In this document: positions 10,701 to 38,400 of the stretch, piece by piece | Layout of the letters: each line of letters starts with the position of its first letter | How positions within the stretch are numbered: position 1 is the first letter of the stretch | Source: Euglena gracilis | Taxonomy: Eukaryota | Length of the DNA: 64,000 nucleotides | Reading direction: 5' to 3' | NCBI GenBank assembly: GCA_039621445.1 | Contig: CP154954.1 | Span: forward strand, 29,397,411-29,461,410 | The notes under the pieces: model-generated | Seen by the model: the letters and a program-made list of their open reading frames with translations, nothing else | Told to the model about the DNA's origin: nothing | Databases searched by the model: none | Translations under genes and position numbers: made by a program

Positions 10701-13700
10701 GCCCTGGGCGAGGCACAGCAGGTGGACCGCCTCCCCCACCGGCGCGAGGCGGCCCCAGGGCGGTGCGGGTCGGCCCAGCGCGGCGACCCCCCCCCCACCC
10801 GCCGCAGCACTTCGCCAAAAAGGCCTTCGGCGTCCCGGAAACCGAAATGCGGCGGGGGTGGGGGGTCGGACTCCCACCCACCCACCAGGACGGGGTGGGG
10901 GGGGGGGGGTGGGGTCCGGCCACCCCCCCTCAACCTGCAGGGTTTCGGGGGTTTCCGGACCGCCCTGGGCAGCACGCCAGCAGCTCATCGCCCCACTCAT
11001 GGAAGGGGCTGCCCTGGCCGGGGCTGGCCTCAGGGGGAGGTGGGCGGTCCCCTGGACGGTGCTGGTCCGGGGCGGGGGGGGGGGGGCTGCCACCCATTCC
11101 CCTCAGTCCTCGGCGGCCCACTGGGCTTTGCGCAGAAGGACGTAATGCATTCTTCGGCACACTTCAGCCCAAACCACAAATTGTGGAGGCGAATCCGGCC
11201 CGTTTTGAACGGCGAAGGATTCTGCCGGAAGTGGTGACAAAATTGGGCGGCCCGAACAACTCACCAGGGTGACCAACCTTGGAACAGACCGCCATTTAGT
11301 GTGTTTCACAACGCATCTGTGATCCATTAATTTTTTGGCGACACATCTGTGATACATTAAATTTTTTTGGTGATACATATGCGATACATTAAATTTTAGG
11401 CTGTGATACATGTGATACGGGAAAAATTTTTTGGTGATACACACTAAACGGCGGTCTGCCTTGGAAGCGCAGGCGGGTGGCAAACAGCTGCCCGGAGGTT
11501 TTTGCTGAGCAGAAGCACACCCCTTCTTTTAGCAGCTCCTGTCACCACTGGAGCCCCAAAGAGGGCTGGGCAAGATGAGGTGCATGGACGGCCCCTGTCA
11601 AGCCAACAGGTGCCGCTCTCCAAGGCTGGCGTTGGTCCCGACAGCGGCTCCCTCAGCACCACCGGCAGCCCACCGATGCCAAACCACACACCGCACCAGT
11701 CCATGACCCAATGACGAGCAAACTGTCCACAAACCATTCTGCACCGAAAACACAAAAGGGAAAACCCCCAAAAGAAACACATCCGCGTCAACCGCCGGGA
11801 AATCGGAAACTGCAAAACACACGGCATCCGCCGAAACCGCCACAGGGGAGCACTCCAGGCCTCGGCGGGGCCAGCACGTTGCGCCGCGTCTGCGGGGCCA
11901 CGAGGCCTACGGCGAAGTGCGCAAGGCCGGCAGCGCCCGAGGCGGGGACGTGGGTGGCGACGGCCTGGGGGTTGAAGCGCAGGGTCCTGCGCGGCATCCA
12001 CCGTGGCCATTCCGCCAACAAACCAAACACGGGCCGCCTCACCGCGGCCGGCAGGGCTCCGGCCGCACAGGAGGGCGGCGGGGGCGATGCGGTCGAGGCC
12101 CACCGCGGCGGCCGGGGGCGGGGGCGGGGGGTCGCCGAACGCGGCCCCGAGCAGCCGCTCCAGCCGCTGGTGCACCGCCTGCATGGACCGCGCATCGTCC
12201 GGGGGGCCCCCCTCCAGGAACGGCAGCCGCGGCCACGCGGCCAGGCCGCTCAGCGAAGTCATTGCGGCGCCTGGCGGCCGGCACACACCACACCCACACC
12301 CGCGCACACCACCCACACACATGACACCCACCCCTGCACCACATACACAACACCACACACCCACACACGGTGCACGCACACCATCCATGCAGTTAGTGCG
12401 CCACGGCGCAAAAAAAATCATGCAGTGGTCGCAATGAAAAGAAGCTTTTTTTGCCACACACCATTGTTATTATGTGCATCATCATGATAATTAAAAATAA
12501 TTATTAATGATAATCATTAATTATTATTAAGCGGCAACGGTTATTGCCGGGGTGGACGCAGCACAAAGAAAAAAATTAGCCTCGGTGGTCGTGGCGCAGG
12601 CAATTTTGTTTTGCTGCGGTGCACGAGGTGCAGATTTTATCGGCATCGCAGAACCCCAAAAACTTTTTCGCTGCAATGAAAAAAAACAGAATTGGCTCAA
12701 TACCCTTCCATGGTCGAGAAAATATCAAAGAGGCCGGACAGAGAAGCCTGAAGAAGGTACCTGCAGCACAGAAAAAAACATTGAAAAAAAAATTGCTGGG
12801 GCAGTAATCAAAAGTTGCCGCAGCGGTCGGGGGCACAGAAATTTTTTGCAGCAGCTCTGTTAGTCACAACAATATTTTCCACCGTCGTTGCGGACCGCTT
12901 TTGTGCCACCCAACGTTTTGCTCTGGCAATTTCTTTGTGGGAACTGGCAAACCCCTGTGGTTTGCAGTGCACTAGCCGCTGGGCGTGTGGTATGGTGTGG
13001 TGTGGTCATGGGTGGGTGGGGGTGTGGGTGGATGGAGGTGGGTGTGCACACGTGTGTGCACCGGAATTCTCATGTGGGAGGGAGGGGAGGTGGTTCCCTT
13101 CGGCAGTGGATAGGCCGGGTGCAGGTCAGGGAGGGGAAGGGCGTCCAGTGGGGAGGAAAGGCCTGGGCAGCACCCCAGACTGCAGGAGGCGAGTGATGCG
13201 GCAGGCCACCCACCGCCGTTGGGAGAGCTACCCTGGGGGGAGCAAAGATAATTTTGGTTCCGAAACAGTTGGGGAAAAAAATGGGAGAAATTTTCAAATG
13301 TCCCAGACAGCCAGAAGAAAACATTTTTCCGGACCAAAAATTTTAATGGTTTCCTGAAAAACACGAAAACGCATCGGGCACCTCCACAAAAACCAGTATA
13401 CGACCCAATCTCTTACCCCCCCCCTATGTCCAATGACCGGTAACCTCTGTCCTCTGACCGGGGGGGTGGTCGTTGGACATAGGGTAGTGACCAAAAAGGT
13501 GTCCTCTGACCGGGGGGGTGGTCGTTGGACATGGGGTCAAAAGAAAGTTGGTGGGTACCCGGGTCCCTACCCACCCAAAAATGCCCAAATTTTCCCTTCC
13601 GGCGCTTTGCGCCGAAAATTTTGGGCAATTTTGACAAATTTTTGTCCAAAAAAGTGTCAAAAATGGCACTTTGGCCAAATTTTTGGCCAATTTTGGGGCA

Positions 13701-16700
13701 AAATTTTTCGTCCCGGCGCTTCACGCCGGGACGAAAAATTTGGTCAAACCTCCGAAAAGGTGTCCTCTGACCGGGGGGGGGGGGTGGTCATTGGACATAG
13801 GGGGGGGGGTCGTTGGACATAGGGGGGGGGGGGGTAAATTGATCCGAAAAAAATTGGTGTTTTCTCCAAAGTACTCTCGGGAACATTTGGGCGGGTTTTG
13901 CCCGTCCAAATTTGTCCAAACAAAATTTTTCTATGCCTCCCCTGGCATATCAAATACGGAGCGCGGGGGGGGGCTCCAGTGGCTGGCTGGGCGCGGCACA
14001 CGTCCACGCTGCGCTGCTCCTCCGCGGTCCACGGCGACCGCGCCCGCCCGACCACGGCCAGCACCCGCTCCGCCCGCGCCTGCTGCTTGTTCAGCCAGTG
14101 GAGCAGCTCCAGCATGCCGGCCTTCGCCTCCCCAGGGCTGCCGGGGCTCTGGGGAGAGGGGCGGGGGGCAGTGAGGTGGGGGGGGGCACGGTGGCACGGT
14201 GGCGGGTGTAGCGAGGGAAGGCCGGACACGTGTCCCCCGGTGCTCACCGGCCATATGCCACTACGCGGTGCCTCCCTCGGGGCCGACCAGCAGACAGGAA
14301 CCTACAACCCCCTAGCAGGGGTATCTGGTGGGAAAAATTTCCCACTGCCCGCTGCAAAGCGCCAGAAAAAATTTGACCACCCAAAACGTGCTAAAAATGC
14401 TCATTTTTGGCAATTTTTGGAACAAAATCAGCCAAAAAAAGCACATTAATACCCAATTTCCACCTCGGTGCACACTGCCGTAGGATTTTTTCCCCCAGTT
14501 GGACCCTGGGACCCTTCTGGGGGGGATGGAGAGTCCAGTGTCAGTGTCCTTTTTCTGTGGCTGGCAAAATGGCCAGCTAGTGGACCCCCAGGTCCTTGGA
14601 CAAAAGCATGGACACCTATTAGTGAAAAATCTAGTCACCTCTGCGGCCATCTGGGCCGCATAGGCACAGTGGTGTTTAGGGTTCTGCCCTCCTACTTGCT
14701 TTGCGTTTTGAGGTGGGCCTTTGCATCCAGAGGTCTTTTTAAGGTTGATGATTCCAAGGACAGCAGGCTGGGACCCAGCCCAGCGCCCCCCCCCCCAAGA
14801 GAAGTTGGGGTCGGGCTCAATGGGAACCCCTCCACTGTTTTGGACAAAAGTTTCAACATCGAGATTTCCCCCGAAGAGGAGGATGGTTCGGTGCCCCCTA
14901 GGGGTGGTACAAATGTGGGGGAGTCTCAGTGCGTAACCGGAAGAGATCCAAAAATACCCCCAATTTTTGCACCAGGGGGTAAAACAATGTATTCTGGGGC
15001 AATGATTTGATGGTCTTTTCCGAAACACCATAAATTGGCATGCCCACCACACCTGTTTTTTTCGGCACACCGTGTGATTTTTGGCCCAATTTTATCTCGT
15101 GCTGCTTCATCATTTTTCCCTCTAGGGTTATAAGTCACGATTAGCACAGGGCCAGGCAGAACGGAGATCAGTCAATAGGCTGTGGGTGCGCTGGAGGTAC
15201 AGTTTTGAAGCAGCACTCCGGTTGGCAGGGGTCCAAGGTGAAAGCAGAGCCAGAAAGAGCATCGGTGACCAAGACACCTTTTCCATTTTTTTGCGTGTTT
15301 GTTTGTGTGTGTGCTTGTGAGTGTGTTGTGCATGTGCGTGTGGGTGTGTTTTGTGTATCTGTGTGCCTGCATGTGTTGTGTGTGTTTGTGTGTGCATGTA
15401 TCTGTGTGTGGCGCATGTGTTTGGTGTTGCATGTGTGAGCTTGTGTGTGTGTGTGTGTGTGCGTGTGTGCGTGCGTGTGTGGGAGTTCCTCAAACAGGAG
15501 GGCTGTCCAGCCTCCTCCATCAGTTCTTGCAGTGGCTCCGAATGCAGTCCGAAGCTGCCGTACACTGCCGGGTCAGGGCCTGGGCAACGTCTTAGCTGGG
15601 AAGCAATGCATTCCCAGAAGAGCAAATGTTTCACACCACTACAGGAGGTTTTCCAAAACAACAACGTCAACAACAACACTTGATTAACCCAATCCATCAA
15701 CCCCGGGCTGGGCCGTGTGTCTGCCCCGCCCCCGGCTGAAATAAAGTTGAGGCCAACTCAGACTAAGTTGGTTGAGCTGAATGCTGAAAAATGTTGTTTG
15801 TGAGAGGGGTATGGGGGCTATATTATATGCCTGAAAAATCCCAACCCAGTTGGATTCAGACTTCTTCGTCACATTTCGGGTAACAGCTGGGTCCAGCCCG
15901 GCAAGCCACTTTTGAGAGGGGCTGAAATGGAACCCTCAATACCCGCTTCATGGAACTGACCCCTCCCTCCCAGGCAAATAATTGTGCGTAAAATTAGCCG
16001 GATTAAGAACAGAATAAATTAGCCCCTTGTCAATTTGGGGGGGGGACAAATTGAGCAGCGCAAAGGTGGTGAGATGCACATTTTGAACATTCTTACGTCC
16101 AATTTCACACAAAATCCTAGGGATGACCCATGTGTAGAATCCATGCAAACTACCCAAAAATTGTTGTTTGTGGTGCTTCTCGGCATTCCTGTTCCGAGTC
16201 GATTTGCATCGAAGGGAAGGTCACAAACAGGCACGCACAAAGGGGGTGACAAATGCCTGGCGGGATAAACCAGTTTGTCATTAAAAAATGGAATGGCGCA
16301 AGTAACGGCGCAGTGCGACGAACCTGTGCAATTCTCAAAAGAAGGGGAATTCCCCGGCCAATGCTCGCGTCAATCGGATCCAAGCCACACCCAGGGCACA
16401 GAACACGGCACTCAGCAGCTCCTCCACCGTGAGGATGACGTGGGCCAACCCGGGCTGCAGAACCTCCACCACCCGCCGCACCAGCTTGTGGATCGGCCGG
16501 AGGCGGCTGCGCGTCCGCTGCCACCCCCCCCCACCATGTCGGGCCTTGGGAGGGCCCAGGGTTGCAGCGGCCCTCGCACACCCGTCGGGCGACGCGCGCA
16601 ATGTGATGGCCGACCCCGATTCCCCACCGTTGGGTCCTATCCCCGCGAGCTCGCAGCTCGCCGCTCGGCGGGAGGCGGTGGTCCAACAGAAGTGCACCTC

Positions 16701-19700
16701 AACGTCGATTGGGCGGCTCACCTGCGTCATCAAAAAAATGTCCAAAAAACACGAGACCTCCCGTATTGACTGCACAGGAGGATGAGCCTGGTGAGATGGA
16801 AGTGGAAGAAATAGAAGTGTGAGAACCCCACCACCATTTGCAGCTGCATTCGCTGGCAATGGCTGTGCCGATATTCATGCTGGTGCCACCTGCTGTGTTG
16901 TGACAAGGGGGGGGGGGGACGCAACATGGACCATTGAGAAACGCGACACAAAAACCGATCTCAAAAATTGTGCAATCAATTTGCTGGAAAGAAATAAGGG
17001 CAAAGACAAACTTCCCTGATACCACACTTTTTGTCTTGACAAAAAGTGTGGTTTCAGGGAAAAAACTGGGCCAAACTATGGGAATTTTTCGAGTCGAAAA
17101 AATCTACCATTTTTTTCCAAATAAAATAGGAAAACACAAATACAACAATATGCGCCCCCATAACAGCCGTGGTGCCTGCTGTGCCATACAGCAGCGGTAC
17201 CTGCCAGCCAGTATGAACAGAAATGCATTGGCACCGCAGAAAATATTATCCCAGCAGGAGTGTCCCCTGCACAGCCGCCTCGCCTGGCTGTGGAGGGCTG
17301 CCTCTACCTGGGCGTCACTTGGCAACCCCCCAGGGGGGGTTGGGATTCAGCCCAGAGGCTAAAAAATCTGGGCTGGCTGGAAAAAAGCTGCTGGCTGACC
17401 CCCCCTCCCACAGGAATCCCCCGGCTGGTCTGACTGGGGTCGACTGAAGGTTCCAAAAAAAATCGAAACTGCAAAAAAAAACGACAAAAAGGCTGATTTT
17501 GCAAAAACAACCAATTTTAGACGCAGAATTTGCCCTGGAAAGCCCAAATCTGATTGATATTTGCCCATTTTTTGGCCCATCTTTGCACCTCCAAAGCCAA
17601 AAAAAATCCGTTGCTGTCCGGCCGTCGCCTGGGCCGCTGGAAAACAACCTCATCGATGGGATGGGGGAAGGGGGACCGGGGCTGGAAAAAGGCTGCTTGC
17701 TCGCTGGACCCTCCCCCCCAGGGGGGATGACCTCCGCTTAAGCGACGCCCTGGCCTCCACCTTCTGGCAGTGTTTTGCCGTGAAGTTGCAGTCCAGGAAC
17801 GTGTGCAGCGTCTTGCCCATGGTCCCCGTCACATGCCGGCAGCCGGCCGCCGAATGGGGCAGACCAGCCACATTTCCCCTGGTGGGGCATTGTCTGCCTG
17901 CGGGTGTGCATCCCCGCTGCGCCGAGGGTGCGGAGGGTTCGAAAATCGCCGTTTTCAAGTCAATGAAGCAGTAGCGGCCTGTTCCACTTTATATGCGACG
18001 CTTTCCTACCCGCTGCACTGTGCATTCTACCTCTGCATTTATGCTTCATACACAGCTACCATTGGTCCGCGCCGATGCATCCCTGTCTTCCATTGTACAT
18101 AGACCACCTGAGTGTGGTTTTCTGTTGTTGTAATTCTCTACTTTTTTTCATGTTTTGTTCATTAGCTCAGTTCCGGTAGGGCTGAGCCTTTGTCCAGTTT
18201 GCTTGCTCAGTCACCATTGGTCTGAGCCCCTTCTCATCTGCCTTACAGCACTGTATGATTACTCCATTTTCTGTTGATGTGAGCGCCCTCCGTGGGAGTA
18301 TGTGAGCAATAATTTCTGTTTCACTTTTTTCCCTTACTTTTTATCTTTCTGATAAAGTACCTCTCCTGCTCAGTTCTAGAACCCCTGAGCATAATAATCC
18401 ACTTACGCGGAGCCTGTACATGCCCAGGCACCAAACCAAACCAAACCAAACCACCCGCCCACCCTCTGGGGTGGGGCCCCCTGGGGGAGGGGATCCTGGG
18501 GGACCCACCCACTTTTGCCCGAAAATGGCCAAAATGCTAAAAATAGCACCCTTTTCAAAAAAGATATACCCTTTTCCGAAAAAGATATACCTGCCAGCCC
18601 CTACCCCCACCCCGTGGAGGAGGGAGTCCAAGGGGCCCACCCACCCCCCCCCCCCGGGGGGAAGGGGTCCAAGGCTAAAAAAAAAACACCTGAAAAAACA
18701 CCCTGGGGGGGGTCTGCAAAACCTTAAAGAGATGTCTGGCTCGGGATCGGTGTCATCCTCTGACACAGTTCTGCTGACGCTTCGCCGGCCCTCTGCTCGG
18801 AGGTACAGCAGCGCCGCGGCGGGGTCGACGGCCAGCCCCGCCGCCGCCAGGTCGTCCACCAGGAACTGGAACTTCTTCGTCGGGGGCACCTCCCTGGGCC
18901 ACAGCACAGAGAGTGGATTTTCAAGGACATGGGTGGTCGGGCCCAACCTGTTGTGGGGGGGGGGGGGGCTCGGGTTTCTTTCAGGGTTAAAACACAAAAA
19001 ACAGAGGTGCACATCTAGGAGTAATCTAGTGCGACCCACCCGGAGCCTGCTGGTCCCATAAAAAGAAAGGTCTGCGGCACACAATCGCCGTGCTCACAAA
19101 CCTCACAGATGGAGTTTCTCGCGGAGGTGTGATGCCGACAACCTTGCTGGGGTCCGCTCCCCCAAAATGCCGAACAAAGCTCAAATCGTGCGCATCAAGA
19201 AGAATAAAAATATGGAATTGCCGGTGATCTGACTGTCTGAGATGCACGATGGACAACTGCTCAACTGCTCAACTGCACAACGGGGGTGGCCAGGAGGGCC
19301 GTCGTATCTGCCCACGTGGACTGCAACCACCGCCCGGCACCTTCCACAGCAGGATGGCATCGGCGGAGGTCCTTGCAAAGCCCCGTTCGTAATGGGGAGA
19401 AAAATGCAGCAATGCTCCAGCAATATTTCCATTGCATAGGATTTGAACGTTTGGGTAACATTTACAATTGATGTTTGCAGCATTTGCACGACAAAGGCAA
19501 GATGAGGTTTGATGTAATTAGAATAAAAGGTGACACAGAAAGAAACTGATTAATTTGAAAATTTGAAAAAAAATTCAAATGATTTAACTTAACTTGTCAC
19601 TGAAGGCCACCCTGTCCCACGATGCCCAGCATCTCCCGCAGGTAGGCGCAGTGCGCCGCCACCGTGGCGACGGCCACCGGGTGCCGGTGCAGCGCTGCGA

Positions 19701-22700
19701 GGGGGACGGCGGCGCGGAGGAGGTCGCGCTGGAGACCGGCCTCGGGGCGGGGAGGGGGGACTTCGGCGGGCGGGCTGGGGATTGGGGTGGCCAATGGGGC
19801 GGGCAGGGATTGGGCCGGCGGAAAACCCGGCGATTGAGACGCACGTGGGTGGAAACGGGAACCACAGGGGGGACAAGGGGGTGGCCTTTGCCTCCAAAAA
19901 TAGGCAACGGCAAGCGGCGGGAGTGCAACTGCTCTGCACTCCATATCCGCCAACTGCCCCAAACCATCCGTGTTTGATATGCGCCGTATCATCCGCTATC
20001 CTTTTCCAATCTCCTTTTCATTTTGGAAAGTTCCAGTTGCCTTTCATGGATTTGTTTCGCGCGGAACCAACCGCCACGCCGGAATGGCCTGAACGGCAGG
20101 GGGGAGGCCGGCCTCCTCGGGGCTGGCGGCCGGGGCGCTGAGCAGCACATCCAGCCGGCCGTGGTCTGCCGCCAGCGCCAGGCCGTGGCAGCGGTGGCCC
20201 CCGGCGGGCAGCGCTGGCAGCGCAGGCAGGGGCCCGTCGGGCAGGGGGAGGGGGGAAGGCTTGACTGCGGCTGCAGGACTGAGCCGGACCAACCAGAGAT
20301 TTTTGAAAAAAGACTTGGAGGTGGACCCGCTTTTTGGGGCGTCAGTTTGGCAGTCAACGTAATTTTCGACATTCCGCGCAGAAAATGGGCCAGAAAAGGG
20401 GGAAACCCCAGCTTCCAGCAGGGCATCCACTCAGCCTGACCCCTCCGGGGGGACAGGGTCTGGTGGACCCCCATCCCACACCCTCCAGGGTTCCAAACAT
20501 GGGGTGAGGTACCACAGTTTGGCTGGGGGCTGCCGACCAGGAGCAGAGCTATTGCTGGCCCCTCGATGCCTTGGCGGAGGCCCTGGGCGGAGGGCTGAGG
20601 AGGGACGGCAGCTGGAGGTGCTGGATGGGGAACCAGCCGTGGGGGCGGGGCATGGGGGCAGCAGCCGAATGGGGTCGGGGGAGGAGGGGGTCATAATGCT
20701 AATCGGGGGGGGGGGTCCAGTGGATGGGAATGCCACTGATTTTGTTGACGAAAATTCCCCAAAAAGGGCCTTTTGGAAAGTTTTGGGTCAAATTGACATG
20801 CTTCGTGTCGGTCACTGTAAAAAAAACTCACTCCAGCTGGGATTTCTGACAGACCCCCCCAATACGGTGGTCCACTGGAAATTCCACTGGATGAATTTGG
20901 ACTCCTCCACCCCGGGTGGTACTGCAAGTCCTTAAGAAGACGCCTGCTGCAGGTGGCCTGAGAATGGTCGTTGTCACATCAAGCTCACAAGCTTGGTCTG
21001 TATCACAGAACGGCACACTTAACTGTGCCGGTTAGCCTGCCGTTTAGTTGCTCAGTCTGCCGTCCACACTAAACCAAGCAGCAAACTTCAGGCTCCCAGC
21101 GGTGCCAGGAAGCTTACCAGAGTGCAGCTCCCCAGAGTGCAGAACCCAGCTGGGAGGGGGAGGACCCATGCTCCGGGAAGACTTTGAAGTCCACGAGGCC
21201 CCCAGCACTGAGGCAAGCCAGGATGGAGACCTCTTCGGCGGATGCCTGGACCGGGGGCAGGGCCGAACGTTGGTGGGGAGGGCCCACGGCAATGCACTGG
21301 CCATGCCTGCTCCACCTGATTTCCATGTTTTCGAGGAGATGGAACAGGAAGGAGCGACGCCCTTCGGGTTGTGTGAAGACACAGCCAAGCACCTCTGGTC
21401 ACCCATGCCCTTGAGCCCAGCATCGCCCAGCATCGCCCAGCATCGCCTTTGAAGCCCTTGGAGGTGTACCTCTTGTACCCACATTCACTCAGATACCTGC
21501 CTCCAAAACATCCAATACAGCATCTACATGCACTTCATCCACTTTCATCCACATTTGGTCATTTACCCACTTTTACAACTTTTGGCCGCTCTTGGCCACT
21601 TTTGGCCACTTTTGGCTACTTTGCCCGATTTAATCCACCTTTGGCCGTCTTTGGCTTGCGGTTACTACCAGATATGCTTTCAATTTGACGGCTGATTGAC
21701 TGTTTTGGCTCCTTTAAGACCATTTTGGTCGGCCAAAACCAGTTTTAGACCATTGGCCACAAGCACTTCCCCCAATCCCTTACTTATCCATTTGGCCAAA
21801 CCAGCATCTGCATCCATTGCACTAATCCAATATCTGCATCTTGTTCAATATCTGCATACATTGCTTGTCTAGCATCTGCATCATTGTCCAGTATCTGCAT
21901 CTTGTCAAGAATCTCAATCTTGTCCAGTATCTGCATCCGTTGCATCCTGCATCCACTGCCTTGTCCAGCATCCGAATCTTGTCCAGATCTGTATCCACTG
22001 CATCTTGTCTCATTGCATCTTGTCCAGCATCTGCATCTTGTCCAGCATCTGCTTCTTGTCCAGCATCTGCATTGTGTCCAGTATCTGCATCTTGTCTAGC
22101 ATCTGAATCTTGTCCAGCATCTGCATCTTGTCCACCATCTGCATGTTGTCCAATGTCTGCATCCACTTCATCTTGTCCAGCATCGGCATCTTCTCCAGTA
22201 TCTGCATCTTGTCCGGCATCTCTGCATCTTGTCCAGCACCTGCATCTTGTCCAACATCTGCATCTTGTCCAGTGTCTGCATCTTGTCTAGCATCTGCACG
22301 TTGTCCAATGTCTGCATCCACTTCATCTTGTCCAGCATCGGCATCTTCTCCAGTATCTGCATCTTGTCCAGCATCGGCATCTTCTCCAGTATCTGCATGT
22401 TGTCCAGCACCTGCATCTTGTCCAGTGCCTTCATCTAATTCATCTTGTCCAGCATCTGCATCTTGTCCAATATCTGCCCAGCATTCGTCCGGTGGCTCCT
22501 AAGCAAACCAAATAACCACAAAAGCCCAACAAATGACCACAAAAAGCCCAAAATTGACCACAAAAAGCCCCAAAAGCAACCAAAATAACCAAAAATTGTC
22601 CAAAACCCCAACAAATTCCACAAAAGGTTGTGAAAAATGACCCAAAATCACCAAAAAAGCGCAAAATGGCCAAAAATGCCATAAAATCTGCTCAAAAAGG

Positions 22701-25700
22701 CCCCAATTAGCCCAATACTTGCCAAATCAGTGATAAATAGCCCCCAAATTAGCAAAAATTGACCCATAATGGCCAAAATAGGTGTAAAACTGGAGCTTTG
22801 TGGGAAAATTATCCCAAAAATGGTTCAATTCTCCAAAATATACAAGAAAAATGCCAGCATCGCCCAGCATCGCCCAGCATCGGAACCCCACCTCTGGTCT
22901 CCAAAAATCCAGCATCGCCCAGCATCGCCCAGCATCGCCCAGCATCATCAGAGGTGCTTGGACACAGCTGCGCCCCTCGAAACCAAACACCTTGCATTCT
23001 GGTGGAGCCCTGATCCTTCCTGATCAGGGGTTTTTTTTTAAGACTGGGGGGAGGGGGTCCCCCACCCATCCTCCCCCTGGGGGGGGGGGGTCCCGTGGGA
23101 CCCACTGACTTTTCCCCGAAAAATGGCCAAAGCTCGCGAAAAATGCAAAAATAGCCCCTTTTTCAAAAAAAAATTTGGCGCCTTCGGTGCTGAAAAATAT
23201 ATCCCACTGGGGGGGGGGGCTCAGCCGGACCCACCCACCCTACCCCCCCAAGACCAAAAAACCCCTGTTCCTGATTGTCCCTGGTTGGCAAATTATTGGT
23301 CAGAGGTGGGCGTATGCCAATTAAAAAAATTCACGTTTGGCCGCTTTTGGGCAGCGTTTGGCCAACTTGCCCACTGTTGGCTGCTTCTGGCCACTTTTGT
23401 CTTTGGCCACTTCTGGCTGCTTCCGGTTCCTTTTTGCATATTGGGGTTGGGTATGACCTACAAAATTGGGAGTGTAAATAATGCCCCATGTTGTAGGTGC
23501 CTGCTCATCACATTTTGGGTTGATTGTCAGAATTGTATTTTATATATGGAGTCACAGCATGGTCAGAAGCACAGGGAAAAAAATGTTTTTCCACCTCTAC
23601 ACCTCCAGCTCCTCTTGTTATACTTGCTCGTGATTTATGTGTCACTACACCTTAAAGAACTCCTATGGCTTCACATTTCACAACCACCTTTCTGTTGCAA
23701 ATCTCAGATATGTATATATAGTGTATTAGGAGTATGACTCATCTAGGAGTATAAGAGAGGAGAAAGAGAGAGAATATCTAATATCTTAAAGTATCAAGAA
23801 GATCTAAAAAAAGAGAAAAAAAACTCTGAGAGAAAAGAGAAAAAGAGACTACAGAGAGAAAGAAGAGAAAAAGAGAAGAACAATCTAAGACTATATATGA
23901 GATTCTATAGATATAGAAGCATTAGTGAATAAGAGTATAATCTATAGAAGGAATAGAGCAGAGAAATATTATCTTAAAGAGAAGACACATAAAAGGCAAA
24001 AGAAAAAAATACAAGAGAAAATATGAAAAGGGGAGAGGAAGATAGAGAGAGAGATAACTAGAGAGAGTGAGAGAGGATACCAAACATTAAAAATGATTAG
24101 AAACAAAGAGAAATAGAAACATATCTAAAGAGAAAAGAGAAGAGAGGAATAAGAATATATAGAGAGAGATAATTATATAAATCAGAAGATAAGAATAAGA
24201 GAAATAGAGAGGGAATATAGAATATGAGAGGATAGGAGAAGAATAGACAGGGGAGAGAAAAAGAGAGGAGGGGGGGGTAGAAAAGTTAGAAGAAGACACG
24301 ATGAGAAGAGAATGAGTAGATTAGAAAGAGATCTTTCTCTCTCTGACACAATAAAAAGGAGAGAGAATCTAGAAGAAGAGAAAAGAAGTTTCAGAGAGAT
24401 AAGGACTAGAGAGAGCCCTACGAGGGGGTATAAATATAATATATTTTAAAGATAATAGAGAGATAAAAAAACGAGAAAAGAGAAATAGAGTCGATATTAA
24501 ATAGAATAGAGAAGAAATATTCTATGAATATATTATAGAGATATTATAAGTAAAAAGAAGAAAATATGAGACAAAGAGAGAGTGAGAGAAGTAGGACAAT
24601 CTCTTCTCCTACAGAAGAAGAGAGAGTGAGAGAAAGAGAAGAGGAAGAGAGGAGGAGAGAGAGAGTGGAAAGAGATGAGAAGAGAGAGACAGAGGAAGGA
24701 GAGAGAGAGAGGAGGAGAGGAGAAAGAGGAGGGGAGGAGTGGAGAGGATGGAGAGAAGAGAGGAAAGAAGAGCGGAGAGAGAGGTCGAGAGAGGAGGGGA
24801 GATAAATAGAAAGATTGGGGGAGAGAGGAGATATAAGAGTAAGAGAGAAGGAGAGTCGAGCAGGGAAAGGGATGAAATGAGAGGGGAGGAGAGGGAGACA
24901 GAAGCTAAGAGTTGTAACTATTCGAGAGAGAGGAGGAGAGGAGAAATATAAGAGATATGTAATAGAGATATAGAAGTGGATACAGAGCGATGTCTAGAGA
25001 GAAAAGAGAATGGTATATTATAGAGACATAGAGAGAGGAGAAAGAGAGAAGAGATAGAAACTAGAGAGAGATATATATAATATAAAGAGGAGAACAGATA
25101 TAATAATATAGATATAGATAGATAGAACATGTATAAAGAAATAGAGAAGAGAGAAGAGGAGTATTATATGAGAGTAAGAGAGAGGAGAGAGAGAGATAGA
25201 GACTATATATATAATAGGGAGATAGAGAAGAGTATAATGATATATTGTATTATAATGCGGGGGTATATATATGTATATATATAAGATAGAAAGAGAATAA
25301 AGAAGAGAGAGAAGATATAAAGAGAAAAAGAGAGAAAAAGAGAAGAACTTAGAAAGTAAAATATACTCTATATAAAAAGAGAGAAGACATATATAACATA
25401 TAATATATATACACAGAGAGAATATAATATATATTCTGGAAGATAGAGAATATAGAGAGGAGATAGAGGATAGAAGTAGGCGTAGATAGGGGAGATATAG
25501 GGATATAAACATATAGAGACATAGAAAATAGAAAGAGATAAGAGAAAAGAGAGATAATAGAGAAAAGAGAGATAGGAGATAAGAGAGAAAGAGAGAGAAG
25601 ATAAGAGGGAAAGAAGAAAGATATAATAAGAAAGATATACAAGAGAAAGAGAGGAGGGTAGAGGAGGAGAGAGATATACAGGAGAAAGAGGACAGGAGGA

Positions 25701-28632
25701 ACAGATATAGACAGAGAGAAAGAGAATATAGAAGAGAGGGAGAGGGATGAGTAGAGGAGAGGAGGAGATAGAGGGAGAGAGAAGAGAGAGAGATGGGCGA
25801 CAGGGAGAGAGAGGGACAGAGGGAGAGGGAGGGAGAAGAGGGGAGAGGGAGAGGAGGGGGAGAGGAGAGGAGAGAGAAGAGAGAGAATAGAAGAGAAGAG
25901 AAGAAAAAGAGAAGAGAGAGATAAGGAGAGAAGAGGAGAGAAGATAGAAGAGAGAGAGAGAAAGAGAAGAAGAGAGAGAGAAAAGAGAGAACAGACAGAG
26001 AAGAGAGAGAGGAACAAGAGGAAGAGAGAGAGAGAGAGGGGAGAGACAGGATTAGGAGAGAGTGCGGATAAGAGGGATATAGAGATACATATAGGGAGAG
26101 AGATATGAAGAGGGGAGATAGAGAAATATAATATAGAGAAAGATAGAGATGAAATATATTAGAAGAGATAGAAAGAGAGGACAACAGAGATATATAGATA
26201 TAGAGATAGAGAGATATTATATAGAGATAGATATATACATGGATACAGACTATATATATAATATCGATATATAATATACATATTAATATATAAAGTATAT
26301 GTGTATAGACATATATATATATATATATACATTTGTATGTATATATGTATAAATCTGTATACATATATACATGTATATAATGTATATATATGTATATAAG
26401 TGTATATATATTATATATAATATATATAAATATAATATATATAAAATATAATAAAAATATATAAAATATAAATATATAAATATATATATATATTCTGTAT
26501 ACATGTATAATAGAATGTTTGAGTATGACAGGGGATGATGGGACACGAAGCAAATGTTGTCACTAAAACAAATGCTGTCTCTTGAGTAATATGCTCTCAT
26601 ATATACCCTCACACTCTCAAATTCACTCTCAAATATGTTCATGTGGGGGGCACTGTTGAGCCAAGCAACACTTGCCGGACAACCTGCAGCAAGTGCCGCC
26701 CTTTCAGGTGCTTGAACGGGGAGAGGTGGTCGCCCTCCCCGGCGACCGGCGGCAGGAAGGTGTCGATGGCGTGAAGCAGCCCGTGCTCGCTGTCGAGGGA
26801 GAGGGTCGGCCGTATGGGGACTGGGTTGTGAGGTGTTTGCCATCTGCAGGGATCTGTGAACAGAGCCTGGCCACCCTCATAACGGAACATCTTCGAGGTT
26901 TCTGAGTTCTCCGGGAGCTGGCAGGCAAAATGGGAGTCAAAACTTCATTCGTGCATTCCGCTGCTGAACCACCTCTGTATCATTTCAATGATGCCACAAG
27001 AGACCAGGATGCTCTCCGACAGCAAAAATAAAGAAATTAATAAGTTGTACTTGCAGAATGGTTTCCAATAACGCTGGCCCACTTGGACGTTTGGTGTAAC
27101 CATGCCAAAAACTTTGCCCTCACTTGCAAAAGTTTGGAAACTGTCACACTTGTGACTGTTCCCAAGATGTGTATGCATGCACATGCACACGCACACACAT
27201 ATACACACATGCACACACACACACACACGCACGCACGCACGCATGCACACATGCACGCACGCATGCACACACACATGCACACACACACACGCGCTCACAC
27301 ACACACACACACGACACTGGCTGAGGTGGCCACACAATGTCGCGAAGGCAAGGGAGGCAATGTATCATGAACAAACTTGAGTTGTGAAAAATAAATAATT
27401 GAAGAAGGACCCAGGGAGTTATTGACGACGCCTGACATGAAATTAGATGCAATTCTCTCCTAACACCAACACACAGCACATACAGAAATATTGGAGCCGA
27501 CCCTTTGCAGACCAGGCCTTCGGCAGACGCCGGCTCACCCAACACATGTGAGTCACAGCAGTGGTGTGCTGGTGCACCATCCGGGCCGAGGACACGGCCT
27601 CCGCGGTGGCCGAGGCGCTGAACCGCACCACGCACTTCCCGTCCTCCACCCGGTGGTCGCAGGGCCTCCCCGCCTCCAGCCCCCCCCACGCACAAAAAAA
27701 AAGTAACGGGAAAGGCAGATGAATAAAATGAAGAACACAAATAGAATGCGCCACTGTAGGACATGAAAGACAGATAGTTTGCGTGTGACCTGGCACAGCG
27801 TTCAACGGCCCGGGGCCTGGGCAGAGGTGCACCTCGCCGTTGGCCAGTCCCGCCGCCAGAAGCTTGCCGGTGGGGCTCCACAGCAGCGCCGTCACCTCCG
27901 CCGGGGTCGTCAGCTGGAACAGCCGCTGGAACGACAGCGCGTTGTGCAGGACGGTCCACGGCCGGTCACGCCGCGATGAGACGTGACCCAAAATGACTCC
28001 GATCCACTCACTCCGTCTTGGGGGGGGGGTCAGATCAACACACGTTGCACCTTGCACTCAATTGCCTCCTGAAAATGTGGTGGATGGATCGCAATGCAAC
28101 GCAGCGTTCTCAAGCTACAATATCGCTTTCAGTGGAGCGGCTGGCTAAGACTTACCTGGGGGGGTGGCCAGCATACAATTGCTTACCGACCCCCGGGGGG
28201 GGGGGAGGGGGGTCACTCCACTTTTTTTTAAAAACCAGTCAGTCACTCATTTTCAAAAAACCAGCCAGTCACTACCCCCCCCCCTGGGGGAGGTCGGCCA
28301 CTCAGAAAAACGGCCACTTTCCAGTCACTTTAGGCCATTTTAGGCCCAAAAAAATTTTCGGCGCCGGGGTCACTCAAGCCACTTTTGCCCACTCCTGGCC
28401 GACCCCCCGGGGGGGGGGGGGGGAGGGGTCCGGGCCAAAAACCAGTCAGTCACTCTGAAAAAACCAGTCACCCCCCCGGGGGGGGGGGGGGTTGGTCAGT
28501 GCTTAAGCAATTGTCTGGTGGCCAGCCGGGGGCGATGCTGCTCCGCGCCGCCACGGCGACCAGGTCCATCTCATGGCACAGTGTGACGAGGGAGATCGGG
28601 CCCGGCACGGCCTTGCTGTGGAGCAGCCGCAT
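7758..28632 (-). CDS. APC4: Anaphase-promoting complex subunit 4 (N-terminal WD40, helical domain, C-terminal WD40), roughly 20 or more short exons
   Basis: Exons 28532-28632 and 27823-27953 splice to [77 protein letters not shown], colinear with the ANAPC4 N-terminus as remembered (DLIALANTAGEVLLHRLASFHRVW...LAWRPDGKLLA). Mid exons read [17 protein letters not shown] and [19 protein letters not shown]. The last junction and exon (7758-7855) read [24 protein letters not shown]...AEA*. Several internal junctions are unresolved. Confidence 0.88.
7856..8662 (-). other. Nonconventional (euglenid-type) intron, last APC4 intron
   Basis: t|gcg CAGCCCCCT ... AGGGGGCTG tcgtcc|gt gives a 9-bp terminal stem with N3/N6 spacing. 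Joins in frame as RGTACVAT. Confidence 0.8.
10756..10967. mobile_element. MITE coinciding with an APC4 nonconventional intron (10751-10970)
   Basis: Minus-strand TIR CAGGGCGGTCCGG / CCGCACCGCCCTG. TSD gtgctgcc / gggccgcc (6/8). Removal gives [17 protein letters not shown] in frame. Confidence 0.8.
16488..17289 (-). other. Nonconventional intron following a 13-nt micro-exon (17290-17302)
   Basis: cac|agc CAG gcGAGGCGGCTG ... CAGCCGCCTC cggCCG atccac|aag. Yields VEAALHKLVRR, gap-free against remembered APC4. Confidence 0.65.
17308..17752. mobile_element. MITE coinciding with an APC4 intron
   Basis: Minus-strand TIR CAGGGCGTCGCTT / AAGTGACGCCCAG. TSD gtggaggc / gtagaggc (+ strand 17753-17760 and 17300-17307). 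Internal sequence resembles ~55165-55875. Confidence 0.88.
17835..18798 (-). other. Nonconventional intron of APC4
   Basis: ctc c|gag CAG ... ggCTG ccggc|at gtg. Joins LYLHVTG in frame, with no GT/AG at the ends. Confidence 0.75.
18170..18453 (+). mobile_element. 3' end of a 5'-truncated relative of the non-LTR element
   Basis: TCCGGTAGGGCTGAGC (18172) matches the 56-bp 3' UTR repeat of the full element. The end CGCGGAGCCTGTACATGCCCAGGCA(CCAAA)4 resembles 51781-51824. 5' boundary uncertain and may extend to ~17860. Confidence 0.75.
21805..22480. repeat. 18-bp minisatellite (TGCATCTTGTCCAGCATC)n
   Basis: Over 30 degenerate units. (AGCATCGCCC)n 10-mers lie nearby at ~21419-21447 and ~22856-22946. 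Confidence 0.92.
23025..23267. mobile_element. MITE, TIR CAGGGGTTTTTT, 8-bp TSD
   Basis: TTCCTGAT is duplicated at 23017-23024 and 23268-23275. Confidence 0.9.
23700..26520. repeat. Purine-rich AG / TA low-complexity tract
   Basis: Almost C-free scrambled (GA)n/(TA)n. Probably a long microsatellite with base-calling noise. Confidence 0.85.
27655..27822 (-). other. Nonconventional intron 2 of APC4
   Basis: ctc t|gcc CAGgcc ... ggccCTG cgacc|ac cgg. Joins VHLYRVEDGK. Confidence 0.8.
27954..28531 (-). other. Nonconventional intron 1 of APC4 (CGG/CCG variant)
   Basis: atc gc|ccc CGGctggccac ... gtgaccggCCG tggac|c gtc. About 10 of 11 positions pair. Joins SSIAVLHN. Confidence 0.78.
28172..28517. 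mobile_element. MITE, TIR CATACAATTGCTTA/TAAGCAATTGTCTG, 8-bp TSD, internal CCAGTCAGTCACT repeats
   Basis: GTGGCCAG is duplicated at 28164-28171 and 28518-28525. The element is intronic. Confidence 0.92.
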
Positions 28633-33400: not shown

Positions 33401-35440
33401 TTGTAAAACGTTCAAAGAATGGGCGGAACCCGTTTCGCCTTTCATTTTCAGATTTCAGGTTCGTGCGGGAGGTTTGCGAAGAGGGGAGAAAACTGCGGAA
33501 AATTTCGAAAATTGTGGGGGAAATTGCAGATATCAATTTCCCCCCTCTGCTGATTGAAAATTTTCAATGTTGATTTTTAAATGGATAAAAAATGTTGAGC
33601 TTTGGAAATGTGATGAACACACACTATGATGAATGCACTTCCCCCAGTGGTGAACGTTTGGCTCGCTGTGCCCAGAACGAGACCCGCACGCATAGCGCTC
33701 GGCACACCTCGGGAAACGCGCGGTAGTACTGGAACGGGTCCTCCAGCAGGGGCCGGGCGGCCTCTGCCACCTCCCGCTTGCGCGCCTCCGCCGCCGCGGC
33801 GTCCCCTTTGGCGAGGAAGACGAAGGCGTGGGCCATCGGGCGCTGGACCTGCGGCGGGCAGGGGCACAAAAGAGCCATTGGATGGACGCTGTGTTCCCGC
33901 CGGGCGAGTTGGCCAGCACTGGGGACCCCGGCAGCGGGGCAGGACCTCCCAGGGTCTCGGGCATGACAGTCCCCTGGGTGGCCGGCCACAGTTCCAAGGC
34001 TGCTTCGGCTGCCGAGGAATCAACAGACGGGCTGCACGGCGGGGTGGCAAAAAGGTGAAATAAGACGGTTCTGAGATCTCGGGGGCAGCAAACGGGTGTC
34101 GATGCACAGTTGGGGGCCGGTGGTGTAAAAGATGGAAGTGGGCCGCGCTGTCTGGAACAGTGGAAACTAAAAGAAATTGAAGGCCCCACCAGCAGAAAAC
34201 CCTCGGAAGGGGGAGAAGAGGAAGGGGGCGGACCTTCTCTAGAATCTCCCGCGCCTCCTCCTCGTGGATCATCTCCTTGGCCTCCTTCTCCACGCCCTTC
34301 GCCAAAGCGTCGTACTGCTGGAGGAACTCCTGTGTGACAAGCGGCACAAGAGCAAAGCGCCGTCACATCTCACTCTGGGGGGGTGACGATCACACACGAC
34401 TGCGGAACCGTTGAGGGGATAAGGAGGAGGGAAAGAGGGAAAGGAAGACAAGGAGGAAGGGAAAGGATAAGCGATGGTCCAAGGATGCCAGGAATAACTC
34501 TTTCCCCCAAAATCGACCTGTGCTTTCGGCCAATTTTTCTGTGGACTTTTCACTGAATGTGCCAGGACCAAACGTTGACTAAAGATCCGAAACAACATGC
34601 AATGGGGGGGGGGCAGCCAATAATGCACAACGCAAAGAATTGCAAAGAAAATGCAAAATTCATTCCCTTCAGCCCTCAGGAAGGCTGCTCTGCTGCCACC
34701 AAACGCAGTTGAGAGGTCGTCCACAAAATTTGCAAATTACCATTGTGAACAAAACAAAGAAGCGGCCAGGGGCTAAACTAGAAAGTGGTGGTGACAACGC
34801 GCCCATGCAGGGTGGGAACAGGGGGAGGGCATGCCTGCACTTGGGGGTAGCGGACGTACAGCTCCGCCTTTGGGCCAATGAGGCATTCTGTGGCGATCTT
34901 AAGGCTGGTCCACGCTGCGAGGACCTGCAGAGACACAGAAGCAGCATGGAAAGGGAGGCTGGAGCTGTAAGGGAAGGCCTGGGTGGGGAGGTGGTGGTGA
35001 CCCCCCTTTAGGTAGGGATGGGGCTGTGTCACGCACGAGATTTGGGGCGTGGGCAGGGGGGGGGAGTGGTTGGAGTTTCTGGTATTACCGTTCAGCCAGC
35101 TCGGGGGGGGGGGGGAGGCAACCTCCAAACCCAACTGTGTTCCTACCTGTATGTGCTTCATTTCGGCTTTTCGGATTTTTTGCCATTTTTCTCACATTTG
35201 GCTGGCGAAACGGCTTTTTCGCCGTTTTGCCAAAAAGCAATTTTGAAACAAATTGGCTTCTGATGGGTGGGAAAATGACTGGGCTGGGTCCCTGAGGCCA
35301 GCAACTCAGCAATTGTGGACTTGCATCAGGACTGGGTCTGCCCCAGGCTTTTGCTTAAGGACCCCCGGGGGGGGGGGGGTACTGGCTAGCCAATCGGCTA
35401 GACACTGGAAAAAGTGGACTAGCTAGACCCCCCCTCCCCC

Positions 35441-35475
<35 letters not shown>

Positions 35476-38400
35476 CCGGGGGTCCCCCGGACTGGAAAAA
35501 AAATCGCTGCGCGCCGGAGGAAAAATGAGGTTTTTAACAGGTTTTTGGCTGATTTTGTTCCAAAAATTCCCAAAAATGGCCAAAAACGGGCATTTTTGGC
35601 CATTTTTGGGGGTCCCAAAAAAAATGTTCGGCGCTTTGCGCCGGTCACTGGAAAAAAAATTTCCACTAGCTAGCCCTGCTAGCAGACCCCCCCCCGGGGG
35701 GGGGGTCTGCTAGAAAACCCACTAGCCAAATTTGGACTAGCTGCAGTCCAGCCCCCCCCCCCGGGGGGGTACTGCAATCCCTTAAGCAAAAGCCTGGTCT
35801 GCCCCCCCCAATGTGGCTGGCATTGGGGAACCTCCCCCAAATGCAAACAACCCGTTGCTTGAACTTCACCAGGCAGGCTGAAGGGTGGATGAACTTTGGG
35901 CAAAACAACAAAGAAATGCCTATTGTGATGAAGGAAAGGGGTGGCATTTTTTTTGACGAAAAACGCCTGTCTGCCAGCCCAAAAAAATAAGCAATGGTCG
36001 TCAAGTTGGTTGGGTGATTTTGTTGCTGATTGCTTTGGATTGGAGTGGAGATTTTCCTTCGCTTTCCCTAAATTTTAGCTTCATTTCCAGAGGTCTCTTA
36101 ATTTTGGACTTCGCGGTGGTGTCGGGGGGGGGGGTTCAATTTGGGTGTCGGTCGGTTCGGCCCCACAGGTTGCTGAAAATTGGGGGTTACTCACAGCGGG
36201 AGGAGAGGATGGCCGCTGGAGGGCGGGGGGGGGGGGGGGGGCACGGCCCCACCTGCTGGCCCTGCCGGCGACCCCGGGCCCGCTCCAAGTCGCGAAGCAC
36301 CCGGTGACAGCGGGCGAGGGCGTCCTGCATCTCGCGGTACCGGATGGCCGCCTCCGCCTGGGCGGGTACCGCCAGGGCCCCGGCCCGGTTGTCAAGAAGA
36401 AGGCTGACGCTCGCGCGCACATGCACGCGTGCGTACCATTAACCGTGCATTCCAAAACCAACAATATTGGTGTGAAAGGCGGCTCAGTGCTGGCTGTCCC
36501 CCACCCACATGGTTTTCTGGGGGGGGAAAGCGTGCGGCTGCTGAGGCATGTGGCTCACGGCGGGAAACACAATTGAAGCACAGCATTCGGGGGGAGGGTC
36601 AACATTTTGCCTCTCCTCACACTTGGGGCCCATGGTGAAGGTGTCTTGTGCTATGGGGTGCCTGCACATAGCAGGCAGACCCCTTGGTGAAAATACTCAT
36701 TTCGTGGTACCTGGCATGCCGTGAGGGGAGTGCGGCTCCAGCACTGCCCGACCCAACCCCAACCCCAGTGCAAAATCCACCCAAATGGCTTCAGGGGGTT
36801 CATATTCAATAATTTGGGTGAAACCTCGAGTTCCGGCCACTTTTAGAAAAAGAACACCGCTGCCCATTGGAATTTGTTCGTCAAGGCAAACCCACCCCAT
36901 TGAAAATGAAAATTGCCAACAAAAAGTTTTGCCTGCAAGGGAGGAAAAGGGAGGTTGGTTCTGGATTTTGCTGGGGTGGCCGGTCGTGGGGGCTTGTCCC
37001 ACCCCCCCCCCCACTGCCTGTCCACAGCGCCAACCCACCCCTGCGGGGACCGCACCGTGACTGGGGTGCGACCTTCCTTGCAAAGAAGACATGAGCACGT
37101 CCCTGCGCGTGGGAAAACACATGTGTGTGGTGTGGCTTATTGTGTTCCGGGGTTCCCCTCGAAGCCTGACAGACGTGGCCCTGCGCACGATGTCCTCCAG
37201 GGTCCCCACCTCCTGCAGCAGCTGATCCGCCTCCGGGCACTGCCGCCAGCGCATGGCGGCCGGTGGTTGGCCGTCGGGGGGCCCGCCTCCCCCGCCCCGT
37301 CAGCCCGCCCCACCGGAGAGCGGGGGGCCCAGGCGGGGGGGCCGGCAACCCTGCGGCCGGTAGGCAGCGTTGGCCTGGAGGGCGGCCACCCTGCACCACG
37401 CGGGGGGAGGGGAGCAGCGGGCGAGGAGCCAAAAGGTCAGGCGCGGGGACACTGGGGGAGGGGGTCCGATGACCCCCCAGCAGAGCGGCGGGGGCGGCAC
37501 ACCGGTCGGCCAGGAGGGCCCACCCCTTCTGCATGGCGGGCCCGTCCTGCTGCTCCTCGGGCTTCTCCAGCTGGGCGCGCAGCTTGGCCAGGGGATCCCC
37601 GGGGGGCCCCGGACCAACACTGCATTTGACCACCTGCCCCCCCCCCCCCAGGGCAGAACGGGAAGGCCTGGTGGGGGGGGTGGTCGACCCCCCCCCTGGG
37701 ACGAGGGGGGGGGGTCGACCCCTTCCACCCACCACAGCATTTGCACCACCAATTTCGGGGAAACGGGGATATTGGCCAGAAAAATTTTGAAAATTTTTTT
37801 TGAAAAATGAACCCAAAACACATGATTTTTTGATGGAAAACCACATTTTTTCCACAAAAAATCTCAAAAAATTCAGGGTTAAAAATTGGTACTTTTTAGG
37901 AGGGGGGGTGAAAAAAAAGAGGTCAAAAAAAGTGGACAAAATTTTGGACAATCAAATTTTACTGACATTTTTTCTCATTGAAAATTTTTGGACTTTGAAT
38001 GGCATTTTTTGCTTCAAAAACCTCTCAAAATCAACATTTTGAGAAAATGTTGATTTTCTGGAAGGTGTGAAAAAATGGGGTTTTGGCGCCGGAAAATTTT
38101 TTTCGGGTCCAAAAATTGGTGCTCCCGGAAATACGGGAAGAGGTGGTGGGGGGGTCGAACCCCCCCACCCACCATGCAGGGGGTGGGGGGGGGGGGGGTG
38201 GTCGACCCCCCCCCCGACCAGTCTTCGGTTTACCAACCCCGGGGGGGGGGGGGGGTGCCTTGGTGCCTGCCCATACTAGGCAACAAGGCAAACCCCTCGG
38301 GTGGGTGGTGCCCATAGCAGGCACCCCCCGGGGGTCGGTTTTGGGTCGTGGTGCCCGCCACAATTTCCCCTTGAAAAGGGCCATTTTCGGGCCCCCAGGC

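Follow-up and report, generated by a model that had tools for sequence, protein, structure and literature searches.

A transposon-derived intron of Euglena gracilis, probably removed as a nonconventional intron, with a GT-AG look-alike unused in the RNA sampled

The locus

The window studied here is a stretch of 64,000 nucleotides (nt) from Euglena gracilis (NCBI GenBank assembly GCA_039621445.1, contig CP154954.1, positions 29,397,411 to 29,461,410 of the forward strand). Its minus strand carries an expressed gene of several exons, and one of the coding exons is interrupted by an element that resembles a MITE (a miniature transposable element with inverted repeats). An initial annotation of the sequence had pointed out that the interruption can be drawn both as a nonconventional euglenid intron and as a canonical GT-AG intron, and had proposed that one substitution in an inverted end may hand a transposon-derived intron to the conventional spliceosome. 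The reading favored here is that this transposon-derived intron is likely removed as a euglenid nonconventional intron and that its GT-AG look-alike is not used by the sampled RNA.

The questions raised by such an intron have a history. Euglenid nonconventional introns follow the code 5'-N3CDG-/-CH'GN5-6|R (Nomura et al. 2025, PMC12501133), and their CAG and CTG triplets lie at positions +4 to +6 and -8 to -6 (PMC4770533). Milanowski et al. 2014 (PMC3935182) proposed MITE-like elements as the source of nonconventional introns, and also that mutations could switch the way an intron is excised, intermediate introns being the transitional state. Milanowski et al. later defined, as a hypothetical case, a real intermediate intron that two mechanisms would remove (PMC4770533). 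Introns with both motifs make up 0.8% of all introns in E. agilis and were judged to be nonconventionally processed (Nomura et al. 2025, PMC12501133), and a review describes inverted ends together with duplication-like repeats at such introns (PMC11282704). Thus, intermediate or hybrid introns have already been published, as have the conversion of one type into the other and an origin from MITEs (PMC3935182, PMC4770533, PMC12501133); conversion and intermediates have been in the literature since 2014-2016.

The element and its flanking duplication

On the minus strand, the order of motifs is CAG AAG GTGGA GGC CAG GGCGTCGCTTAAGC ... GCCAAGTGACGCC CAG GTAGA GGC AGC. Two excisions of 453 nt can be drawn through it. 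The first, 17303-17755, follows the spacer rule of three nucleotides before the 5' triplet and five after the 3' triplet (N3/N5); the second, 17308-17760, has GT...AG borders. Both preserve the reading frame, and the products are the same apart from a GTG in the one and a GTA in the other, respectively. These features of the minus strand, including both drawings, had been laid out by the initial annotation and were reproduced by direct reading and by script.

The inverted ends of the element (CAGGGCGTC... and ...GACGCCCAG) are complementary at 10/12 of the outermost positions. Written in the same orientation, the 5' arm reads CAGGG and the 3' arm CTGGG. The arms are directly abutted by the two copies of an 8-bp target-site duplication, GTGGAGGC and GTAGAGGC, which are identical at 7/8 positions; the calculated chance of such a repeat at a given register is about 4e-4. 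The inverted ends and the 8-bp duplication bear out the claim that the element is MITE-like. Short inverted ends that start with CAG, taken with a duplication of this length, are hallmarks of the hAT group, and the element is presumably hAT-like.

Public sequencing runs under the same species label were mapped to the region 15700-21800. They comprise one DNA run (X1), a small run whose kind was guessed as RNA (X15), and two RNA runs used as raw reads (X21 and X24), of each of which about 5-6% was read; a search of a sequencing-run index listed no RNA run for the sequence. In X1, contig pieces covering 16907-17385 and 17678-18098 match both duplication copies and both CAG triplets, with 0 differing letters. 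A sequencing error at the ends of the element is therefore unlikely, as far as this can be judged from a run that is possibly the same sample as the source of the assembly.

Word depth in X1 reaches 76,290 (bin 17332-17535) and 9,929 (bin 17536-17739) in the interior of the element, where bins of single-copy sequence have about 200. By contrast, the outermost ~75 nt on either side are found in single-copy X1 contigs together with their flanks. Taken together, the single-copy termini and the high-copy interior suggest that the element is old or low-copy and has high-copy repeats inside it. Apart from numerous short matches to the palindrome of a C-run and a G-run, a blastn comparison of the element with the window gave nothing but a partial match of 65 nt at 55194-55258. 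Motif searches of the window stayed at chance level beyond the element's own two arms (21 vs 13.3 expected; 5 vs 4.2), and a scan of metagenomes with a 14-nt stretch of the arm returned 119 loci, none of which extended the match and all of which are attributed to chance (best flank 24/57 positions identical, mean 15.5).

Related elements and the origin of the 3' CAG

The whole window was scanned for 8-bp duplications (at least 7/8 identical) lying directly against inverted arms of the C.G type, with 20 block-wise dinucleotide shuffles as the control. Eight elements were found, whereas the shuffles gave 1.05 on average and 3 at most. The six strong ones lie at 647-983, 11285-11458, 17308-17752 (the target), 23025-23267, 35344-35796, and 52431-53035. 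A less strict scan also picks up 21386-22960, with CAA ends, and 28172-28517, with CAT/CAG ends. Most of the window elements have perfect 8/8 duplications and 12/12 arms, and their inverted ends mostly start with CAG. Three of them (the target, 28172-28517, and 35344-35796) are also built alike: their arm has the pattern CAG-N6-GCTTAAG, and behind it comes a palindrome of a C-run and a G-run. Palindromes like those of these three elements recur widely in the window.

This comparison supports a MITE-like element of transposon origin. The element also resembles the hAT-type MITEs and introners of the review PMC11282704 in its 8-bp duplication, its short imperfect ends that start with CAG, its lack of any need for coding capacity, its insertion into an exon, and its removal at the RNA level. 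Introners of other lineages recruit the spliceosome through GT/AG supplied by the duplication or the inverted ends; here, in contrast, the GT-AG sites are unused in the sampled RNA.

One could also consider that there are no transposon scars at all, the terminal helix being a functional stem of the intron and the direct repeat a product of double-strand-break repair. Such repair has been proposed for recent intron gain with extended direct repeats (PMC4770533), 84.4% of the introns of E. agilis have short direct repeats on their flanks (PMC12501133), and the single-copy state of the termini means that near-identical copies of the element are lacking. The repeat is, however, exactly 8 bp long and abuts the inverted ends precisely, and neither the excess of such elements over the shuffles, most with perfect duplications and arms, nor the arm and palindrome shared with two other window elements, nor the high-copy interior fits this explanation. 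It is therefore regarded as very improbable.

In an alignment of six arms, arm position 2 is an A in five of the six, and only the 3' arm of the target has a T. Likewise, both arms start with CAG in 5/5 of the other strong elements. On this comparison, which takes in related elements within one window and not the full family, the 3' CAG read on the RNA strand is a derived single substitution (T to A at intron position -7), because the related arms and the other strong elements carry the complementary base. The initial annotation had suggested as much, and had asked whether all copies of the family carry CAG at that end; among the related elements of the window, they do not.

Removal of the element from RNA

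The joints 17834->18799, 20219->20587, 20640->21179, and 16494->17753 are present in X15, X21, and X24 and absent from the DNA run X1. This confirms the initial annotation's reading of the element as an intron, and the minus-strand gene that holds it is expressed. RNA depth in the three runs falls into short, exon-like blocks between empty bins, and X24 is stranded, with its first mates on the plus strand, as fits minus-strand RNA.

The joint that spans the element is 16494->17753. In X15, it is carried by one contig of 196 nt (depth 234.3; short side 83 letters), and in the raw reads by four reads of X21 (2+2, with four different starts) and two of X24, compared to 0 contigs of X1. Between the two sides of the joint, the X15 contig has 15 letters that are identical to window 17285-17299. 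The path of the mRNA thus runs from the exon 17834-17753 through a 15-nt micro-exon (17299-17285) to the exon 16494-16397. The initial annotation had drawn a longer downstream exon, and that reading had run into the next intron.

Across the joined exons, the frame is open and the mRNA reads AAG GTG GAG GC/A GCC; it has GTGGAGGC followed by AGCC, which is the GTG form. Other letters were not recorded at 17758, 17305, or 17309, and the right side of the X15 contig matches the window from 17753 on. The RNA product is GTG, and therefore the GT-AG register is not the form observed in the sampled RNA. Reading this codon had been put forward as the way to tell the two mechanisms apart. It was possible since the duplication copies differ at one base, which makes the two products distinguishable and allowed a direct test. 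The outcome rules out GT-AG as the form seen in these samples, and nothing in the RNA points to a handover to the conventional spliceosome. The further step, that GTG would mean nonconventional splicing, went too far: the product is compatible with it without proving it, as is seen when all cut positions are listed. A script that enumerated every cut position yielding the observed product found six registers, from 17300-17752 to 17305-17757. One of these is the N3-CAG/CAG-N5 register followed by G, and the GT-AG register falls outside the six. A GC-AG register, which the initial annotation had overlooked, falls inside them (shift -2), one base from the nonconventional register. Since six registers share one product, the RNA cannot separate nonconventional from GC-AG excision.

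Among the best 15 of the 69 joints, there was no GTA joint and no mixed excision of 447 or 459 nt, nor was there a back-joint of the intron, such as would mark the full-length circle, in place of a lariat, that is expected of an excised nonconventional intron, although the libraries may not retain circles. The first of these negatives bears on the possibility of dual processing, in which most transcripts would be spliced nonconventionally and a minority would use GT-AG and give the synonymous GTA. In-frame GT and CAG borders do exist, and removal of such introns by two mechanisms is allowed for by PMC4770533. With GTG at intron positions 1-3, the donor GTGGA matches 3/5 positions of the GTGTG consensus (PMC11170887), and a CAG is present at the other border. 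The sampling is also shallow enough for a minor form to be missed, with six raw reads, contigs that hide minor forms, and counts that cover the best 15 joints. On the other side, the fifth base of the donor is not the conserved G, the 20 nt that lead up to the 3' CAG contain nine pyrimidines and no C-rich tract, no mismatch was recorded at 17758, and hybrid introns are assigned to the nonconventional machinery by PMC12501133. Dual processing is therefore considered unlikely.

Signals of the nonconventional type

Beyond the product, the favored reading draws on the ends of the intron and on its surroundings. Positions +3 to +7 read CCAGG, identical to the consensus of E. gracilis nonconventional introns, and positions -9 to -6 read CCAG where the consensus has CCTG (PMC11170887). 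A C-D-G triplet at +4 to +6 after a 3-nt spacer (GGC, then CAG) is present in only one of the six registers. At the other end, the triplet CAG is followed by GTAGA, so that the spacer and the outer bases of the triplet fit the code and the middle pair, A·A, does not. The first base of the downstream exon is a purine (G at 17302). All 5/5 neighboring introns with RNA support are nonconventional as well (two N3-CAG/CTG-N5, one N3-CGG/CCG-N5, and two GAG/CTC), and three of these five fit the published code.

The two ends of the intron form a terminal helix in both the minimum free energy (MFE) and the centroid folds. In this helix, +3/-5 and +4/-6 are paired, A(+5) and A(-7) are open, and 11 pairs follow. 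Its energy was calculated as -6.2 kcal/mol with 10 nt from each end joined by U7 (10+U7+10, as in PMC11170887) and as -22.9 kcal/mol with 20 nt from each end (20+U7+20). The first value falls inside the range of -10 to -2 kcal/mol reported for nonconventional introns (PMC11170887). The fold of the whole intron is no better than that of shuffled sequences (z -0.62), and only the terminal helix is meaningful.

Several points weigh against the favored reading. The middle bases of the triplets are not complementary, as the code requires them to be: the pair +5/-7 is an A·A mismatch here, and it was paired in 55/55 introns of PMC4770533. In the knock-in experiments of PMC12501133, single substitutions within CAG or CTG abolished splicing, and of the variants at the second position, only CTG-CAG kept it. 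The GTG product is given equally by the GC-AG register, so the mechanism is unproven by the product. Support from raw reads is thin, at six reads in two runs, and a minor GTA isoform could be hidden, given that rare variants drop out of contigs (the form in which X15 was available) and that the joint counts cover the best 15 of 69. Lastly, the 3' copy of the duplication has no coverage in the RNA samples' own reads. This matters for X21, which has a G at window 20149 (within an exon) in 8/11 reads, as does X24 in 1/5, where X1, the X15 contig, and the window have an A. The difference is probably one between strains and not RNA editing. X21 is therefore probably not of the same strain as the window, with which X15 agrees at this position, and the X21 strain may carry GTG in both copies of the duplication.

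The A·A mismatch makes room for an alternative in which the T-to-A change at -7 disabled nonconventional splicing and the spliceosome now removes the intron as GAG|GC...AG|GC, with the same GTG product. The knock-in results just cited would fit it, its register is one of the six, and the fifth intron base would be G, which is the sole position described as prominent in the GC-AG introns of E. gracilis (PMC11170887). However, the acceptor GAG would sit 6 nt beyond a CAG, and the pyrimidine content before that CAG is as poor for this splicing as for GT-AG. A spliceosome acting here should also favor the GT donor and the CAG acceptor, and the GTA, 447-nt, and 459-nt forms that this would give are the ones missing from the best-supported joints. 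The geometry, the helix, and the five nonconventional neighbors suit the nonconventional model instead, and GC-AG splicing is judged quite unlikely. If it were true, a nonconventional intron of transposon origin would here have been fully converted to a spliceosomal one, with no change in the product.

How the intron is classified depends on the scheme used. Its 3-nt and 5-nt spacers, purine exon start, terminal helix, CCAGG motif, nonconventional neighbors, and product-compatible register are those of euglenid nonconventional introns, and it differs from them in the A/A triplet middles, which break a pair treated as obligatory. Measured against the published code, it counts as a nonconventional intron that lacks the complementary middle base. 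Only 61.2% of annotated nonconventional introns fit the code of PMC12501133, so exceptions are common. An intermediate intron is defined by canonical borders at a slidable position together with an end-to-end helix, and both are found here, with GC-AG as the borders. By the 2014 definition, the intron is therefore a conventional/intermediate one through its GC-AG drawing. Canonical dinucleotides at a slidable position and a stable end helix are what it shares with the intermediate or hybrid introns of Euglena (PMC3935182, PMC4770533, PMC12501133). Unlike in those introns, the GT-AG drawing lies 5 nt off and can be told apart by its product, and only the GC-AG drawing is product-equivalent.

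A model for insertion and removal

The favored reading, removal as a nonconventional intron, can be set out as a series of steps. A non-autonomous hAT-like DNA transposon would have entered a coding exon of the multi-exon minus-strand gene and duplicated 8 bp at its target. In the pre-mRNA, the inverted ends would pair and draw both junctions together, and cutting would take place 3 nt ahead of the 5' CAG and 5 nt past the 3' triplet. Going by this geometry and the published spacer rule (PMC12501133), the element and one copy of the duplication would be excised exactly, because 3 + 5 equals the 8 nt of the duplication, and the frame K-V-E-A-A-L would be restored.

The T-to-A change at -7 would have come later and turned the 3' triplet into CAG. 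Together with a duplication that by coincidence starts with GT, it would have yielded the GT...AG look-alike, whose borders lie upstream of the actual cut sites by 5 nt. The nonconventional machinery would have to tolerate the A·A mismatch, probably by means of the 11-bp helix behind it and the pairs +3/-5 and +4/-6.

The host gene and other features of the window

The features of the intron and of the gene around it are listed in Table 1. The mRNA continues beyond the last exon listed, since loose ends before 16397 are seen in X15, X21, and X24. A Pfam search with six exon pieces (24-34 amino acids) found nothing at E up to 10.

Table 1. Features of the element, its intron, and the neighboring parts of the host gene
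Feature	Position	Strand	Details
Intron, nonconventional register	17303-17755	minus	453 nt; N3 (GGC)-CAG ... CAG-N5 (GTAGA), exon G next
MITE-like element, imperfect inverted ends	17308-17752	minus	445 nt; interior with high-copy repeats
5' copy of 8-bp target-site duplication, GTGGAGGC	17753-17760	minus	last 8 nt of upstream exon
3' copy of target-site duplication, GTAGAGGC	17300-17307	minus	one mismatch to 5' copy
5' inverted-repeat arm	17737-17752	minus	CAG then GGCGTCGCTTAAG(C)
3' inverted-repeat arm, end ...GACGCCCAG	17308-17323	minus	arm position 2 changed: CAG for CTG
Upstream nonconventional intron	17835-18798	minus	964 nt; N3-CAG ... CTG-N5, exon A
Upstream coding exon	17753-17834	minus	82 nt; joints 17834->18799 and 16494->17753; open frame
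Micro-exon	17285-17299	minus	15 nt, between two introns read as nonconventional
Downstream nonconventional intron	16495-17284	minus	790 nt; N3-GAG ... CTC-N5, exon G; 10-bp perfect terminal helix
Next coding exon	16397-16494	minus	98 nt; X15 contig piece

Two of the neighboring introns, 16495-17284 and 19726-20118 (both minus strand), are of the GAG...CTC type. They have the usual spacers of 3 nt and of 5 or 6 nt, are supported by RNA, and form helices of -30.4 and -27.7 kcal/mol, respectively, in the 20+U7+20 construct. Both lie outside the published C-D-G/C-H'-G code. A further minus-strand feature is that GTGGAGG (17754-17760), at the end of the upstream exon, is perfectly complementary to CCTCCAC in the micro-exon (17290-17296), and the two are paired in the MFE fold. 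This pairing may be due to chance, or it may aid in bridging the two introns.

Repeats of several kinds are found elsewhere in the window. Very high-copy repeats lie within introns at 18352-18759 and 21208-21800, where word depth in X1 rises to 289,768 and 1,137,516, compared to about 200. There is an 18-nt minisatellite of about 34 copies at 21864-22477, a long purine-rich tract of the AG type at 24613-26046, an AT tract at 26190-26493, and an imperfect GT microsatellite at 15295-15481. On the plus strand, 45160-51104 holds three long open frames, which code for 976, 706, and 313 amino acids. The 976-amino-acid frame has an endonuclease/exonuclease/phosphatase domain (E 3e-10), as in retrotransposons without long terminal repeats, and the 706- and 313-amino-acid frames matched nothing in Pfam at E up to 0.01.

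Significance

This locus offers a clean single case in which the 3+5-nt cut geometry equals the 8-bp duplication, so that splicing would undo the insertion exactly. The arithmetic of 3 + 5 = 8 was not found stated in the literature searched, and it may still have been published. The one-base difference between the copies of the duplication acts as a natural reporter of the cut register. It also provides an intron found in nature whose removal goes ahead although the reportedly obligatory +5/-7 pair is A·A.

There is a practical side to this as well. An aligner that prefers canonical borders would file this intron as a conventional GC-AG intron. Some of the GC-AG introns catalogued in Euglena may in fact be nonconventional ones whose borders can slide, inside the duplication, onto GC-AG.

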